NCBI GenBank assembly: GCA_037443035.1
Contig: JBBIPC010000012.1
Location: forward strand, 36,417-100,416
Length of the DNA stretch: 64,000 nt
Origin: Chthonomonadales bacterium
GTDB taxonomy: Bacteria > Armatimonadota > Chthonomonadetes > Chthonomonadales > CAJBBX01
Direction: 5' to 3'
Below, in pieces: positions 21,227 to 27,424 of this stretch. The notes under the pieces were generated by a model. The model was not told where the DNA came from. It saw only the letters and a program-made list of their open reading frames with translations, and ran no database searches. How positions within the stretch are numbered: the first letter of the stretch is position 1; each line of letters opens with the position of its first letter. The translations under genes and the position numbers were made by a program.

Positions 21227-21850
21227 GTGTATGATGAGGACGTCATGGAAGCGGGGTTGAGAGCCTCAGCGACGTCGCGATGGTGCGATGCTGAAGAGTT
21301 CGATCAGTATGTCCGGCGCTATCACCGGCAAGCTTACAACATCGCCTATCGTTTGGCCGGGAACCACGCAGACGCCGAAGACATCACGCAGGAGGCCTTC
21401 ATCCGTGCGTTCCGGTTCTTCGACCGCTACAACCGCTCCATGCCGTTCGAGAATTGGCTGTACCGCATCATATCCAACGTATTCATTGACGAAGTTCGAC
21501 GGCGGCCGAAGCTCAAGATGCAGTCGCTGGATCAAGCTGTGACAGCCAGGAGCACCTCGAGCGAGATGTCCTTCGAAGTGCCCGACCTTGCCTCGAACCC
21601 CGAAATGATGATGATGGAAACCACGCTGGATGAACCGTTGCAGCGGGTGCTGGACTCGCTGCCGCGGGACTTCCGCCAAGCCGTCATCCTCGCGGACGTC
21701 GAGGGGCTGTCCTACGAGGAAATCGCTGAGGTCATGGGCTGTTCGCTGGGTACGGTGCGATCCCGACTGCACAGAGGGCGGAAACTCATGCGCAACCGTC
21801 TACTGGGCGAGAGCTACGTCCCTCCGGGTCGCCAGGGAGGAGCAGAGTGA
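21227..21850 (+). CDS. ECF sigma-70 factor
   Basis: DAEDITQEAFIRA, NWLYRI and GLSYEEIAEVMGCSLGTVRSRLHRGR motifs; alternative start ATG 21245. Confidence 0.95.
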   Translation: MYDEDVMEAGLRASATSRWCDAEEFDQYVRRYHRQAYNIAYRLAGNHADAEDITQEAFIRAFRFFDRYNRSMPFENWLYRIISNVFIDEVRRRPKLKMQSLDQAVTARSTSSEMSFEVPDLASNPEMMMMETTLDEPLQRVLDSLPRDFRQAVILADVEGLSYEEIAEVMGCSLGTVRSRLHRGRKLMRNRLLGESYVPPGRQGGAE

Positions 21851-22425
21851 GTTGTAGGCGAGCTGCTTCTCTGATCAGCGCACTCATAGATGGTGAGCTG
21901 TGCGGCAACGAGGCACTTCGGGTACGTGACCATCTTGAACGTTGCGAGTGCTGCCGGCGCGAATACGAGTCGTTGCTGCGGACGAAGCGCCTGCTTTCCA
22001 GCCTGAAACCGGTGGAACCTCGACCGGAGTTCGAACGGGATATAGTCCTTAGAGTCCGGCAGGCATGCCAGGAACCGGAGTGGCGCAGGAGAATCGGGGC
22101 ATGGTGGGCGACGACGGACGCAGGCACACGTGTGCGTGCGGCGGCTCTGCTCGCCGCGTTCTCTTTGATAGTCCTGGCCCTCTCCATCCGGTTTACGCTC
22201 ACCAGCAGCTCTACGCTACCCCCTCGAGCATCAACCGGTACGCTCGCCAACGCCGATGCCCTGCCGCTGCCGGAGCAAGACATCGCCTTTGCGCACGAGA
22301 CATTCGATCGGCCGCAACCTGTGAGTTACCTGCCTAGTCCGGAGCCCCAGGTCAAGGGCGAAGGTGCTCGGCTGCAGCCGCTCCAGCCCTGGCAGACGTA
22401 CAGGCCGGTTGCCTCGGCTCCCTGA
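21847..22425 (+). CDS. Zinc-binding (zf-HC2) transmembrane anti-sigma factor
   Basis: ISALIDGEL...HLERCECC (HxxxCxxC) plus one TM helix; overlaps the sigma stop codon. Confidence 0.9.
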   Translation: MSCRRAASLISALIDGELCGNEALRVRDHLERCECCRREYESLLRTKRLLSSLKPVEPRPEFERDIVLRVRQACQEPEWRRRIGAWWATTDAGTRVRAAALLAAFSLIVLALSIRFTLTSSSTLPPRASTGTLANADALPLPEQDIAFAHETFDRPQPVSYLPSPEPQVKGEGARLQPLQPWQTYRPVASAP

Positions 22426-22430
22426 GGAGC

Positions 22431-23705
22431 GTGGAGGTGGACTACGCCATCCTCCGGCAGGGGTGCCTACGCCTGATTGCCGGCGCAACCATCCTCGGTC
22501 TGACGTGCATAGGGTTTGCTGCTCCGTTGCCAGACGATGTCGTGGAGCTGTACGTTCGCGCCTCGAGAGGCGTCAATCTTCGCGGCAAGGTCCTGACCGT
22601 ACACCCTACACCCAATGCAGTCCGAACCACAACCCGGCGCGTCGTAAGACGAAGCGACGGCAGGAGCCTCACCGTGTTCGAGGCGCCGGCATCGCAAAGA
22701 GGTGTGATCCTTGCCGATGATGGTGTCTGGACCTGCCGTTACGACCCAGCCGAGCACATCGTTCGGCGCAAGCGCTCCCTGGAGTTGCTCGATCGCGACG
22801 CCGACCGCCGATTGACGCGCCTCATTCTACGTAACTATGTACCCCGGCTCGAGGGAATGGAGACGATTGCGGGACGCGCTTGCTACCGCTTGTGCCTCGA
22901 ACCCCGATCTCGCTCCGGCCTGACGATCCGGCTGTGGGTGGACAAAACCACCGGTGCGGAGCTGCGGCGCGATGAGTTGGACGCCTGCGGGAGTACTGTC
23001 TGTATGACGCTCTACATGTCCGTCTCTTTTCCCGCCAGCATCAGTCTGGCCGAGGTGACCCCTCGGTATCCCCGCAAGGCGCGTGTCGTCACGCTGAGTC
23101 GTTCCGCCGTGCATGTCGACATAGCTCAACTAAGCAAGGCCGCTGGCTTTCCTGTACGTGCCCCACTCATGACACCGGCGGGCTTCGAGTTCGTCGCGGG
23201 CACGGCAGCCACTGTGGCAGGTCGGCCGTCGGCGTTCCTACGCTATACCGACGGTCTCTCGGACCTCACTGTCATCGAAACGCGAAGGTCTAACCGTGGC
23301 AACCTTCCCTCGCGTGCGGCCCGTGTCCTCGCTAGGCCTTATGGGGAGACGGAAGTGGATTACGTCCTGGACGATCTCCAGGTTGTTGTTGTAGGACGCG
23401 GCGATCCCCGCGAGCTGCTGGCAACAGCCGAGACCATGGACGGCAATCTCGAACGGCGATGGCGGCAGGACGTCGAGCGTGTCTTCAACGGCCGATCACA
23501 GGCCGTGGGAACCATGCGCAACAGGGGCCTAACAGGCGACGTCGTCGTTGCCCTGTTATCCGTATCTGCGCAGGCCGGGAAGCCCCCGCAGACCGCCGTT
23601 GATTCCTACCTTCAAGGGTCATGCTGGCGAGATCTCGCCAGAAGGTGGCGCGTGCCGGAGACGACTGTGTTGCGCCAGATCCAGACGCTCTGCGGATCGC
23701 GGTAG
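22431..23705 (+). CDS. MucB/RseB-like periplasmic regulator with extra C-terminal helical domain
   Basis: Signal peptide; E.IAGRACY, RLWVD..TG..LR and LRYTDGL motifs; third gene of the sigma/anti-sigma operon. Confidence 0.75.
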   Translation: MEVDYAILRQGCLRLIAGATILGLTCIGFAAPLPDDVVELYVRASRGVNLRGKVLTVHPTPNAVRTTTRRVVRRSDGRSLTVFEAPASQRGVILADDGVWTCRYDPAEHIVRRKRSLELLDRDADRRLTRLILRNYVPRLEGMETIAGRACYRLCLEPRSRSGLTIRLWVDKTTGAELRRDELDACGSTVCMTLYMSVSFPASISLAEVTPRYPRKARVVTLSRSAVHVDIAQLSKAAGFPVRAPLMTPAGFEFVAGTAATVAGRPSAFLRYTDGLSDLTVIETRRSNRGNLPSRAARVLARPYGETEVDYVLDDLQVVVVGRGDPRELLATAETMDGNLERRWRQDVERVFNGRSQAVGTMRNRGLTGDVVVALLSVSAQAGKPPQTAVDSYLQGSCWRDLARRWRVPETTVLRQIQTLCGSR

Positions 23706-23901: not shown

Positions 23902-23931
23902 TTGCAACTGTAGGACGTACGGTGTTATAAT
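23902..23931 (+). promoter_or_regulatory. Sigma70 promoter for the 24012 gene
   Basis: TTGCAA-18 nt-TATAAT with extended TGn; TGTAGGA direct repeat at 23887 and 23909. Confidence 0.7.
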
Positions 23932-25243: not shown

Positions 25244-25384
25244 ATGTCCAATGACGGCAAGAGGACTCCATACCAGCGGCCCCAAGCACGTCTCGTGATG
25301 GTCAGACCTGAGGAGCGCCTCATGAGCTGCAAGAAGACGTCGACAGACGCGCCGCCGTGCGCGAGCCCTCAGGAACTGAGCTAG
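25244..25384 (+). CDS. RiPP-precursor-like peptide 1 (46 aa)
   Basis: GGAGGTG SD; MSNDGKRTPYQRPQARLVMVRPEERLMSCKKTSTDAPPCASPQELS. Confidence 0.85.
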   Translation: MSNDGKRTPYQRPQARLVMVRPEERLMSCKKTSTDAPPCASPQELS

Positions 25385-25413
25385 GGGTTTCTGCGTATCC
25401 GAATACACTACGT

Positions 25414-25453
25414 GCCATCCCCGCGGTAGGAGAGATCCTACTGCGGGGGTGGT
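25414..25453 (+). terminator. 18-bp stem-loop with GAGA (GNRA) tetraloop between the two peptide genes
   Basis: GCCATCCCCGCGGTAGGA-GAGA-TCCTACTGCGGGGGTGGT; three G-U pairs on the + strand; weak U-tract. Confidence 0.7.
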
Positions 25454-25551
25454 TGTTGGTTGTGCGTGGGGGAAGGAGGCACGAGGATTCGTCAGCGGTC
25501 CCAAAGGGCAGTCCTCAATAGGCAACTACCTTCTATTAGGAGGCGAGCGCA

Positions 25552-25692
25552 ATGATGAGTACAGGTAACAGGCTTCCGTATCAGCGTCCACAAGCTCGTC
25601 TCGTGAAGCTCAAGCCTGACGAACGCCTCATGGCGTGTGGAAAGCACCCCGCTGGGGGCGGGGCTTGCGTAGGTAAACCTCACTATAGCTAG
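25552..25692 (+). CDS. RiPP-precursor-like peptide 2 (46 aa; not in ORF track)
   Basis: AGGAGG SD; manual translation MMSTGNRLPYQRPQARLVKLKPDERLMACGKHPAGGGACVGKPHYS; paralog of 25244. Confidence 0.85.
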   Translation: MMSTGNRLPYQRPQARLVKLKPDERLMACGKHPAGGGACVGKPHYS

Positions 25693-25831: not shown

Positions 25832-27424
25832 CTACGTCGCGGTTGTTTCTCCCGTGTCTGTTTCTGACGGCTGGCTGTCCTGGTCGCTTCCCATACCCGG
25901 AACGCGGCGGACGAGGTCCTGGAGCTTGATGCCGGTCATGGCTTCGAGTACGGGTGGTACCTGCGCCATGATGCCCGTCACCTCGGAGGTTATCTTGCTG
26001 GCGCCCACTCCGTCTCCGCCGCTGTTGATCATGACGATCTTGTCCACCTTTGCCAGTGGCGCAGCGATCGCCTGGGCGATCTCCGGCAGACGCTCGATGA
26101 TCATCTGCGCCACCGCCGCCTCGTTGTAGGCTTTGAACGCTTCGGCCCGCTTCATCATCGCCTCTGCCTCGGCGAGACCCTTGGCGCGAACGGCTTCGGC
26201 CTCGGCAAGACCGCGTGCCTCGATGCCAGCAGCCTCCGCCAGCGCCTTGGCTTTGGCCACCTCAGCGTCGGCCAGGCCACGCATCTTATTGGCCTCAGCC
26301 TCGGCCTCGCCAGTCTTCTGCACGACGTCAGCCTGTGCGAACCCGGTCATCTTGGCGGCCTCGGCCTGGCCGCTCGCTGTTGTCCGGAGGCGGTACTGCT
26401 CGGCTTCCGCGATGGTCTGAATGCGGTTCCGCTCAGCCTCGGCGGGCTTCTGCACCGTCGCGATGAGTTCTTTCTCCTTGCGCAGGATTTCCTGCTGTTC
26501 CAGCTCGGTCTGTTTCAGTTTCTCGACGATCTGGACCTGGACTTCTTGCTCCTTCACCTTCTGAGCAGTGGTGAACTTCTGCAGATCGTAGGCCAGATCC
26601 GACTCGGCCTTCTTCTGGTTCACGGCCGCGGCGTATTCCGCTAGTTTGAGCTTGTAGTCGCGGTCCGCTTCCGCGATCTTTGTATCGGCCAGATACTTCG
26701 CTGTGGATGCCTCCTGGGCCGCCTCGGCAGCTCGTATGGTGGCATCGCGGTTGGCCTCGGCCTCACCGATCTGCGCGTCTCTCTTCACCTGGGCGATTCG
26801 CGTCTTGCCAATGGCCTCCAGGTAGCCGCGGCTGTCGCTGATCTCCCGGATGGTGAAACTCACGACTTCGAGGCCCATGTTCGCCAGGTCACCGGCGGAG
26901 ACTTCCGCCACGCGCTGCGCGAAGGCCTCATGGGCCGCGTAGACCTCCTCCACGGTCAATGTGCCCAGAATCGCGCGCAGATGCCCGGCTACCGTCTGGT
27001 AGGCGATCTGCTTGATCTCTTCCCGACTCTTGTTCAGGAACTGCTCAGCCGCGGTGCGGATAGAGACTTCGTCACCCTTGACCTTGATCTGCGCTACGCC
27101 ATCCACTTTGATGGGCACACCCAGCTTCGTATACATTTCCGGCGTTACGATGTCCAGGGTGATTAGCTCCAGGGACATGACTTCGACCCGCTCCAGTACC
27201 GGATTGATGAGCGAGCCGCCGCCCTTCACGATGCGGAAGCCCAGGCGTCGGCGAGTACCATCCTCTTCGACTACTGTCTCGCCACGGCCGCCAGAGATGA
27301 CGAGGACTTCATTGGGCCCAACCTTGCGATACAGCTTGCTGTAGATCAGAACGATGACGACGCCGAGACCAACCACCGCGGCGGCAATCGAGCCCAGATA
27401 GGTAAGCAATCCCGATTCCAACAT
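25832..27424 (-). CDS. Flotillin (SPFH/FloT-like)
   Basis: N-terminal TM, YRKVGPNEVLVISG, AAEQFL and GHLRAILG motifs; AE-rich coiled coil. Confidence 0.95.
   Translation of the reverse strand: MLESGLLTYLGSIAAAVVGLGVVIVLIYSKLYRKVGPNEVLVISGGRGETVVEEDGTRRRLGFRIVKGGGSLINPVLERVEVMSLELITLDIVTPEMYTKLGVPIKVDGVAQIKVKGDEVSIRTAAEQFLNKSREEIKQIAYQTVAGHLRAILGTLTVEEVYAAHEAFAQRVAEVSAGDLANMGLEVVSFTIREISDSRGYLEAIGKTRIAQVKRDAQIGEAEANRDATIRAAEAAQEASTAKYLADTKIAEADRDYKLKLAEYAAAVNQKKAESDLAYDLQKFTTAQKVKEQEVQVQIVEKLKQTELEQQEILRKEKELIATVQKPAEAERNRIQTIAEAEQYRLRTTASGQAEAAKMTGFAQADVVQKTGEAEAEANKMRGLADAEVAKAKALAEAAGIEARGLAEAEAVRAKGLAEAEAMMKRAEAFKAYNEAAVAQMIIERLPEIAQAIAAPLAKVDKIVMINSGGDGVGASKITSEVTGIMAQVPPVLEAMTGIKLQDLVRRVPGMGSDQDSQPSETDTGETTAT

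Follow-up and report, generated by a model that had tools for sequence, protein, structure and literature searches.

This locus raises the question of what two short tandem genes encode, and where the enzymes acting on their products might be found. A first-pass annotation of the 64,000-nucleotide stretch of DNA analysed here (the window) had interpreted them as precursors of a Cys-crosslinked RiPP family matured in trans.

Two related precursor genes in tandem

Both genes, P1 and P2, were confirmed as a tandem pair encoding 46-residue peptides, with a common start context (GGAGG, four bases, CGCAATG) and a common AGC TAG ending (Table 1). The P1 leader reads Y10-x-x-P13...E24-R-L-M-S28 and its core C29-x-K31...C39...S46. 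From the first Cys onward, identity between the two peptides is limited to C29, K31, C39 and S46, in agreement with the annotated picture of variable cores sharing two Cys, one Lys and a terminal Ser. A tblastn search of the genome matched P1 to P2 at E 5e-13, so their resemblance is not due to chance. The annotation had also counted five synonymous changes in ten leader codons, and all five differing sites in codons 9-18 are indeed synonymous (5/5). As that interval had been picked for its identity, the count was repeated over the full leader, and codons 9-29 gave a concordant pN of 0.13 and pS of 0.60 (core: pN 0.57, pS 0.80; all uncorrected).

Neither P1 nor P2 matched a Pfam or NCBIfam model, and P2 used as a single query in a protein search retrieved itself alone, relatives surfacing with profiles. 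A near-identical copy of P1 is present in another strain (P0002). No maturation-related genes were detected by Pfam near P1 and P2 (21 ORFs, 14.4-36.3 kb of the window), and no radical SAM motif (CxxxCxxC) was found in window ORFs longer than 200 aa. PqqD domains occur in the genome on contigs C2 and C8 and nowhere else, confirming that the window holds no maturase.

Table 1. Features of the precursor locus and of associated genes elsewhere in the genome (positions refer to the window unless a contig is given)
Feature	Position	Strand	Remarks
Sigma-70-like promoter consensus	23902-23931	+	10/12, extended -10; ahead of TED gene
TED protein, 401 aa	24012-25217	+	secreted-type (signal peptide by eye); ends 26 nt before P1
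GGAGG Shine-Dalgarno for P1	25231-25235	+	read from sequence
P1 precursor, 46 aa	25244-25384	+	46 codons + TAG
Terminator-like hairpin	25414-25453	+	18 pairs and U-rich tail; between P1 and P2
GGAGG Shine-Dalgarno for P2	25539-25543	+	read from sequence
P2 precursor, 46 aa	25552-25692	+	46 codons + TAG; P1-type leader, core differs
C2 cassette	G000:C2:288816-293190	-	operon headed by third precursor
Stand-alone second NTP_transf_5-like gene	G000:C32:14906-16228	+	homologue of nucleotidyltransferase behind TED-precursor pairs

P1 and P2 belong to a family with a near-invariant terminal serine

A family HMM built from 12 peptides retrieved 232 clusters at 50% identity (E<=1e-3) and matched P1 at E 7.7e-15 and P2 at E 2.6e-17. 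The family consensus is YExPxATFVxLKxEERLMxCxK. Among the best 150 of the 232, the C-terminal residue is Ser in 135 and Thr in 8; 19 of these sequences fell outside the core pattern, and the 131 cores that could be parsed begin with C-x-K in 121 cases and contain exactly two Cys in 116. The spacing between the Cys residues is variable, mostly ~5-11 residues. In an extended set that includes some training sequences, the terminal Ser is found in 214 of 231 members. Because 101 of the 113 members whose HMM match stops at least three residues short of the end are still Ser-terminal, against a background Ser frequency of 7.6%, the terminal Ser is not an artefact of the profile. Conserved core residues are the two Cys, the Lys and the terminal Ser, and no others. 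Upstream of the first Cys, Leu is found at -3 in 222 of 229 members and a small residue at -1 in 190; the position of P1 Ser28 is occupied by Ala in 113 of the 229, P2 having Ala, and by Ser in 30. The highly variable cores carried by one leader suggest tolerant enzymes, which may be useful in peptide engineering.

Named relatives are Armatimonadota, Chthonomonadales in the majority; source names in the search also include Deltaproteobacteria and Ca. Electrothrix, and a Bryobacterales locus carries a full cassette of the kind described below. All named members are annotated as hypothetical proteins, seven further members matched no NCBIfam model at E<=1, and the family profile found no credible match in the PDB. 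For locus scanning alignment A1 was used, the broad alignment A2 being too variable. Four candidates (L037, L084-L086) were dropped as members since the start and the YxxP motif are absent, as were five weak places (L017-L021) containing no family peptide. No description of the family was found in the literature searched, a body that excludes most subscription papers; the large supplements of PMC10036551 might list the RRE family, and word searches found no description in the accessible text of PMC7470986 and PMC4289311. At one locus (L128, G072:C154, 2409-2711, minus strand) a Cys-less leader-like peptide lies directly upstream of a related kinase and is possibly a variant without the cross-link.

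A third precursor heads a cassette of modification enzymes on contig C2

A weak tblastn match at the end of contig C2 revealed a third family gene, which heads a cassette in the order precursor, PqqD/RRE, radical SAM/SPASM, HPr-kinase-like, SipW-type peptidase and NTP_transf_5 (Table 1). The RRE (PqqD PF05402, 63 bits), the 355-aa radical SAM enzyme (PF04055, 72 bits) and the NTP_transf_5 protein (120 bits) score over their cut-offs. The SPASM domain is recognised by TIGR04085 (28.2 vs a cut-off of 27) and missed by PF13186, while the kinase (TIGR04355, E 2.6e-10) and the S24/S26 peptidase (TIGR02228, E 1.5e-8) remain under cut-off. The kinase aligns weakly with HPrK (E 0.03), and no PDB sequence match was obtained for the nucleotidyltransferase. 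All five enzyme genes are full-length and retain their catalytic residues: among orthologues, 3+7 Cys are invariant in the radical SAM enzyme (18/18), H181, the Walker A motif and D221 in the kinase (11/11, D220 nearly so), and S30 and H69 in the peptidase (14/14, D84 nearly so). Homologues of the kinase, peptidase and nucleotidyltransferase all lie outside the window.

A search of the assembly with a 105-sequence profile identified three family genes and no more, namely P1, P2 and the C2 copy. The C2 precursor has an in-frame TAG (C2:293053-293055) just before its second Cys, beyond which the frame runs on through that Cys to a Ser at the end. At this position GCA (Ala) is found in contigs of two other metagenomes, which match the stretch at ~93% identity, and relatives carry Ala, Ile or Glu. 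Read as it stands, the C2 precursor is truncated in this assembly, through mutation or assembly error, and P1 and P2 are therefore the sole intact family precursors found there. Cluster-based mining would misread this genome: next to the enzymes it would meet a broken precursor, the intact pair being on a different contig, behind a thioester-domain gene.

No exporter was found among the scanned neighbours of the C2 cassette, ~430 nt upstream of which the contig ends; an MsbA-like exporter adjoins the cassette of genome G358. At the end of C2 (L005, 13459-13620), high-depth short contigs pile up in run X2, which suggests that a repeat breaks the assembly upstream of the cassette. Elsewhere in the genome, the C8 PqqD protein (L002, G000:C8:114745-117939, 175 aa) was rejected as a partner, being situated in an ABC-permease-like operon that contains no family peptide, and PF13186 SPASM genes on C1 and C16 were set aside, with no family precursor nearby.

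Precursors and enzymes co-occur in related genomes

Precursors were detected in 15 of 401 genomes of the phylum. These genomes are kin and not independent, so the following co-occurrence counts are overstated and descriptive: 13 of the 15 have at least one precursor adjoining a radical SAM gene, the kinase is present at E<=1e-20 in 40 genomes that include all 15, and a precursor accompanies the kinase in all 12 genomes where the latter is matched at E<1e-80. The proposal that homologues might lie beside RiPP enzymes was thus borne out, both in these 13 genomes and in the C2 cassette, where an RRE, a radical SAM/SPASM enzyme and an S24/S26 peptidase accompany the third family member.

The layout varies, and remote arrangements recur. 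Precursors and enzymes lie on different contigs in G124 and G129, the kinase is separate from the rest in G015, G020 and G022, and some cassettes gain a sulfotransferase, a GNAT or an ABC transporter. True family members were found at 9 of 13 metagenome loci, seven in cassettes and two behind a thioester-domain gene. The Arg three residues past the Pro in P1 and P2 also occurs in the leaders of two complete cassettes (L078, L079).

Several individual loci depart from the common arrangement. In L131 (G205:C70, 322-3736) both profiles, radical SAM and kinase, match a single 700-aa frame, a fusion that is preceded by an RRE and followed by a second radical SAM gene. In L062 (G100:C189, 3714-9654) the cassette contains a sulfotransferase and a peptidase-nucleotidyltransferase fusion, and its radical SAM gene has one stop near the start. 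L063 (G100:C20, 6527-9107) has one precursor flanked by two radical SAM paralogues, with no adjacent RRE or kinase. Large secreted-type genes often adjoin precursors or cassettes, among them Peptidase_C25, DUF11/FlgD and NHL repeat genes (L071, G129:C21; L064, G101:C77; L070, G325:C16).

P1 and P2 lie behind a gene for a thioester-domain protein

The gene upstream of P1 encodes a protein with a predicted thioester domain (TED) inserted in an Ig-like domain. Its residues C193, Q290 and W294, of the Cys-Gln thioester type, are the same in all 37 homologues aligned. Near-full-length homologues of the protein also include P0234-P0249 (16 sequences). In comparisons using the AlphaFold model (pLDDT 91.7), the top eight VIA-align matches were all thioester domains (Z 11.9-7.8; for the best of them, rmsd 3.6 and 175 aligned) and Foldseek retrieved Cpa at E 8e-5. 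The protein itself has no Pfam match; one homologue exceeds the PF08341 cut-off. On the strength of the model the gene is assigned to the thioester-domain proteins, the thioester itself being predicted.

The TED protein was matched in 10 of the 401 genomes, five in its own family and five more distant and partial, the latter without a precursor within ~1.5 kb. A precursor is located directly behind the TED gene in four of the five own-family orthologues (G000, G001, G021 and G023); in G023 the TED gene is broken and the peptide retained, and in G017 the TED gene runs off the contig. The same pairing is seen on two metagenome contigs. Behind the TED-precursor pair in G021 and L082 lies a second nucleotidyltransferase, whose closest homologue in this genome stands alone on C32 and is 43% identical to the L030 protein (C2 enzyme, 26%). 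Two NTP_transf_5-like genes are likewise present in G001, G017, G021 and G023.

The hairpin between P1 and P2 is highly stable (-36.9 kcal/mol, z -7.0, 0/200 shuffles), and no such signal follows P2 (z 0.4). The promoter-like site is weak when taken alone, one being found where 0.7 is expected in shuffles. From the placing of the promoter-like site ahead of the TED gene and of the hairpin between the two precursor genes, it is likely that this site also drives P1, co-transcribed with the TED gene, and that the hairpin lowers transcription of P2 relative to P1, so that P2 would be either attenuated or driven separately.

Directly upstream of the TED gene are genes for an ECF sigma factor, a zf-HC2 anti-sigma factor and a MucB/RseB-like protein (21227-23705, plus strand), a possible regulatory link. 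In G001 (L072) an ECF sigma gene with 50% identity is found on the opposite strand, just downstream of the satellite precursor. A flotillin gene (Band_7 and Flot; 25832-27424, minus strand) converges on P2, and in relatives no link with the peptides was seen.

A proposed maturation route and its alternatives

We consider it quite likely that P1 and P2 are matured in trans by the C2 cassette. The earlier suggestion of maturation by off-window enzymes is supported by this cassette being headed by a family member, although it is still something we infer. The stand-alone RRE would very probably bind the leader at Y10-x-x-P13. A predicted complex of P2, RRE and peptidase scored 0.87 (best control 0.01, including one with the RRE replaced), a mark that 116 of 157 solved pairs attained, as did 2 of 215 mismatched ones, although this calibration is rough for a three-chain job with custom alignments. 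At least 84% of contacts agreed across runs and partner pLDDT was at least 90. The prediction supports RRE-leader-peptidase binding; it may reflect likeness to solved RRE-leader complexes, and it does not tell cognate from related leaders.

The 3+4 Cys SPASM pattern of the radical SAM enzyme would leave one iron free, to which a core Cys could bind, and the enzyme would then form one or two Cys-to-carbon thioethers in the core. Our first choice, to which we give close to an even chance, is a thioether from Cys to a carbon of the invariant Lys two residues past the first Cys, because conservation in the core is confined to Cys, Lys, Cys and the terminal Ser and the SPASM spacing is CteB-like; the conserved C-x-K thus points toward a Cys-Lys cross-link. 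We know of no precedent for such a cross-link, and a seven-Cys SPASM domain is not, to our knowledge, diagnostic of thioether chemistry. Of the Cys-crosslinked RiPP first envisaged, the cassette supplies a radical SAM/SPASM enzyme, and the cross-link itself is what we infer.

The kinase would plausibly, with the balance leaning that way, phosphorylate or polyphosphorylate the terminal Ser, and a nucleotidyltransferase, either that of C2 or the second on C32, may add a sugar or nucleotide to the Ser phosphate, a step to which we give somewhat less than an even chance. Leader removal would probably fall to the SipW-type peptidase, docked on the complex of RRE and leader. In the predicted complex, P2 residues 18-30 contact the peptidase stretches containing S30 and H69, an interface that fits a cut after R25 or before C29. 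Cleavage before the first Cys, releasing an 18-residue core, would be the most likely, as Leu at -3 and a small residue at -1 fit the signal-peptidase rule for these positions. The satellite locus would supply extra cores, which in this assembly are the sole full-length ones. The likely product, as read from the genes, is a leaderless Cys-cross-linked peptide phosphorylated at its terminal Ser. As to its role, we would guess that the small decorated peptide is produced along with a surface protein that binds covalently, and serves at the cell surface or in signalling.

The same trans-acting cassette may instead perform other radical chemistry, with the Cys residues serving as a disulfide or anchor and the enzyme installing a C-C cross-link at Lys or oxidatively decarboxylating the C-terminal Ser, an outcome we regard as distinctly possible but short of probable. 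The radical SAM enzyme has the decarboxylases AhbD (E 2.8e-32), NirJ2 and MftC as its best NCBIfam models and the decarboxylase BlsE as its best PDB sequence match; the terminal residue is conserved, as would suit an enzyme that, like MftC, acts there, and the variable Cys spacing would be equally tolerated by a disulfide. However, the decarboxylase-type matches are far below their cut-offs (112 vs 500 and 93 vs 265 bits), the open-site enzymes CteB, PapB and Tte1186 show the same 3+4 Cys pattern, and kinase precedent already accounts for the terminal Ser. A different register, that of the linear polyphosphorylated peptides (LPP), would place the cut after R25 (Y-16...E-2, as in LppA) and the kinase on the +3 residue, Ser28 in P1, rather than on the terminal Ser. 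LPP and the family share a Y-to-E offset of 14 and the modelled interface is compatible with either cut, but the +3 position is more often Ala than Ser, including in P2, the residues at -3 and -1 favour cleavage before Cys, and the conserved hydroxyl is that of the terminal Ser, making the LPP register unlikely.

A broken cognate precursor could also be a sign of a decaying system, in which the cassette has lost its precursor and P1 and P2 are unprocessed remnants. The in-frame TAG, the broken TED gene of G023 and the detachment of the second nucleotidyltransferase from the satellite in this genome are consistent with decay; against it, the five enzyme genes are intact, P1 and P2 keep their Shine-Dalgarno sequences, Cys, Lys and Ser, and a leader under purifying selection, and the TAG may have arisen recently or come from misassembly, GCA being found in two close strains, so that we hold decay to be improbable. 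Were the TAG read as pyrrolysine, the cassette would have its own substrate and the satellites would be extras. The frame does reach the second Cys and terminal Ser, but no PylS scored over cut-off (best 22 vs 178 bits), a CTA-anticodon tRNA is absent among 48 tRNAs and relatives carry ordinary residues at this position; this barely credible reading was rejected for want of PylS and an amber tRNA. Maturation of P1 and P2 in trans by the C2 cassette remains the preferred explanation.

A more speculative extension is that the matured, phospho-decorated peptide is captured by the TED thioester through the invariant Lys or the new N-terminal Cys, forming a covalent display module. It is suggested by the precursor lying directly behind the TED gene in four of five own-family orthologues and on two metagenome contigs, twice with its own nucleotidyltransferase. 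Most family members, however, have no TED neighbour, the TED genomes are close kin and the G023 TED gene is broken, and we give the idea little chance. If true, a RiPP pathway would tag a surface protein with a variable moiety tipped by a sugar-phosphate, and RiPP biosynthesis would for the first time be linked to thioester adhesins.

Comparison with known systems

The picture first drawn for this locus was borne out in outline, but it did not include the kinase, the nucleotidyltransferase, the near-invariance of C-x-K and the terminal Ser, the TED gene or the fact that the C2 precursor is broken. As far as the accessible text of the LPP report goes, the closest known system is LPP of Bacillota (LppA/K/B/S/D/N; Popov et al. 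2026, PMC13381572). Both systems have a stand-alone RRE, an HprK-like kinase, a SipW-type Ser/His peptidase and an NTP_transf_5-type protein, together with a YxxP leader that has E at Y+14; the cores vary in both, and neither has a lasso cyclase. The C2 RRE profile matches LppB (9X8Z) at E 2.4e-7, and the peptidase has the Ser/His/Asp of the LPP SpI-like peptidase, the S30/H69 spacing equalling that of S29/H68 in LppS. SpI cleavage in LPP is described there as RRE-dependent, LppK as modifying the internal core Ser3 rather than a terminal Ser, and LppN as giving no detectable product. YxxP-RRE leader complexes have been solved for lasso and LPP systems.

The differences from LPP, within the same accessible text, lie in both substrate and enzymes. 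The LPP motif YxxPxVLxHQxIxFETxxS, with Ser3 as kinase site, is absent from the family consensus (Ser in 30/229); the leader here ends EERL[ML]x|C rather than FET|xxS, and the core of ~18 aa combines C-x-K with another Cys and ends in Ser. A radical SAM/SPASM gene of cross-linking type separates the RRE gene from the kinase gene, whereas the LPP product is linear and made without one; the main text of the report does not contain the words radical, rSAM or SPASM, and one Radical_SAM column appears in a supplementary matrix (PMC13381572). LPP clusters have an MsbA-like exporter, whose counterpart was not found among the scanned neighbours of the C2 cassette, close to a contig end, and satellites behind a TED gene are found here and not in LPP.

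A terminal-Ser kinase followed by hexose addition has precedent in lasso peptides, according to the accessible parts of PMC8498205 and PMC6993621. The paeninodin (PadeK) and pseudomycoidin (PsmK, PsmN) systems described in them resemble the present one in a YxxP-type leader, a stand-alone RRE, a kinase of the HprK type with a DD motif, an NTP transferase and a conserved C-terminal Ser; in addition, a sulfotransferase or GNAT occurs in some related clusters here. Those phosphorylated lasso clusters, in contrast, include a macrolactam cyclase and a B2 cysteine protease. Neither was found in the C2 cassette, whose five genes are otherwise assigned, and which instead has a radical SAM enzyme, a signal-peptidase-type protease and a Cys-bearing core.

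The radical SAM enzyme recalls CteB, PapB and Tte1186 of the ranthipeptides and sactipeptides, which, in the accessible text of PMC10177961, share a 3+4 Cys SPASM arrangement, Cys-containing cores and RRE dependence. The first auxiliary cluster of CteB has three Cys ligands, and the SPASM Cys spacing is 18/35/3/6/3/19 in the C2 enzyme and 18/38/3/6/4/19 in CteB (PMC10177961). By sequence alone, the C2 enzyme thus has the radical SAM/SPASM architecture and predicted open auxiliary site of these synthases. Unlike them, it is a 355-aa enzyme with a separate RRE protein and a substrate without an Asp/Thr acceptor motif, and its thioether is predicted; a PDB search gave no CteB match at E<=1e-3 and SkfB at E 2e-12. 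SynChlorMet clusters (TIGR04248-TIGR04251) likewise bring together PqqD-like, HprK-like (ScmC) and radical SAM/SPASM genes, but with two radical SAM genes where the C2 cassette has one, and none of their cut-offs was reached (bits scored/cut-off: ScmC 28.8/125, ScmD 24.2/100, ScmE 78.3/400, ScmF 92/400). The TED protein shares with the TED/TIE adhesins Cpa and SfbI the fold and the conserved Cys...Gln-x-x-x-Trp, and differs from them in its Armatimonadota host, its insertion in an Ig-like domain, the lack of a sortase tail by eye and the RiPP precursor genes behind it.

By analogy, then, the system would be an RRE-dependent RiPP pathway of LPP-like accessory enzymes plus a radical SAM step. 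A widespread family is thereby given a defined and testable set of substrates and enzymes, one that unites the accessory enzymes of LPP with a putative radical SAM cross-linker.
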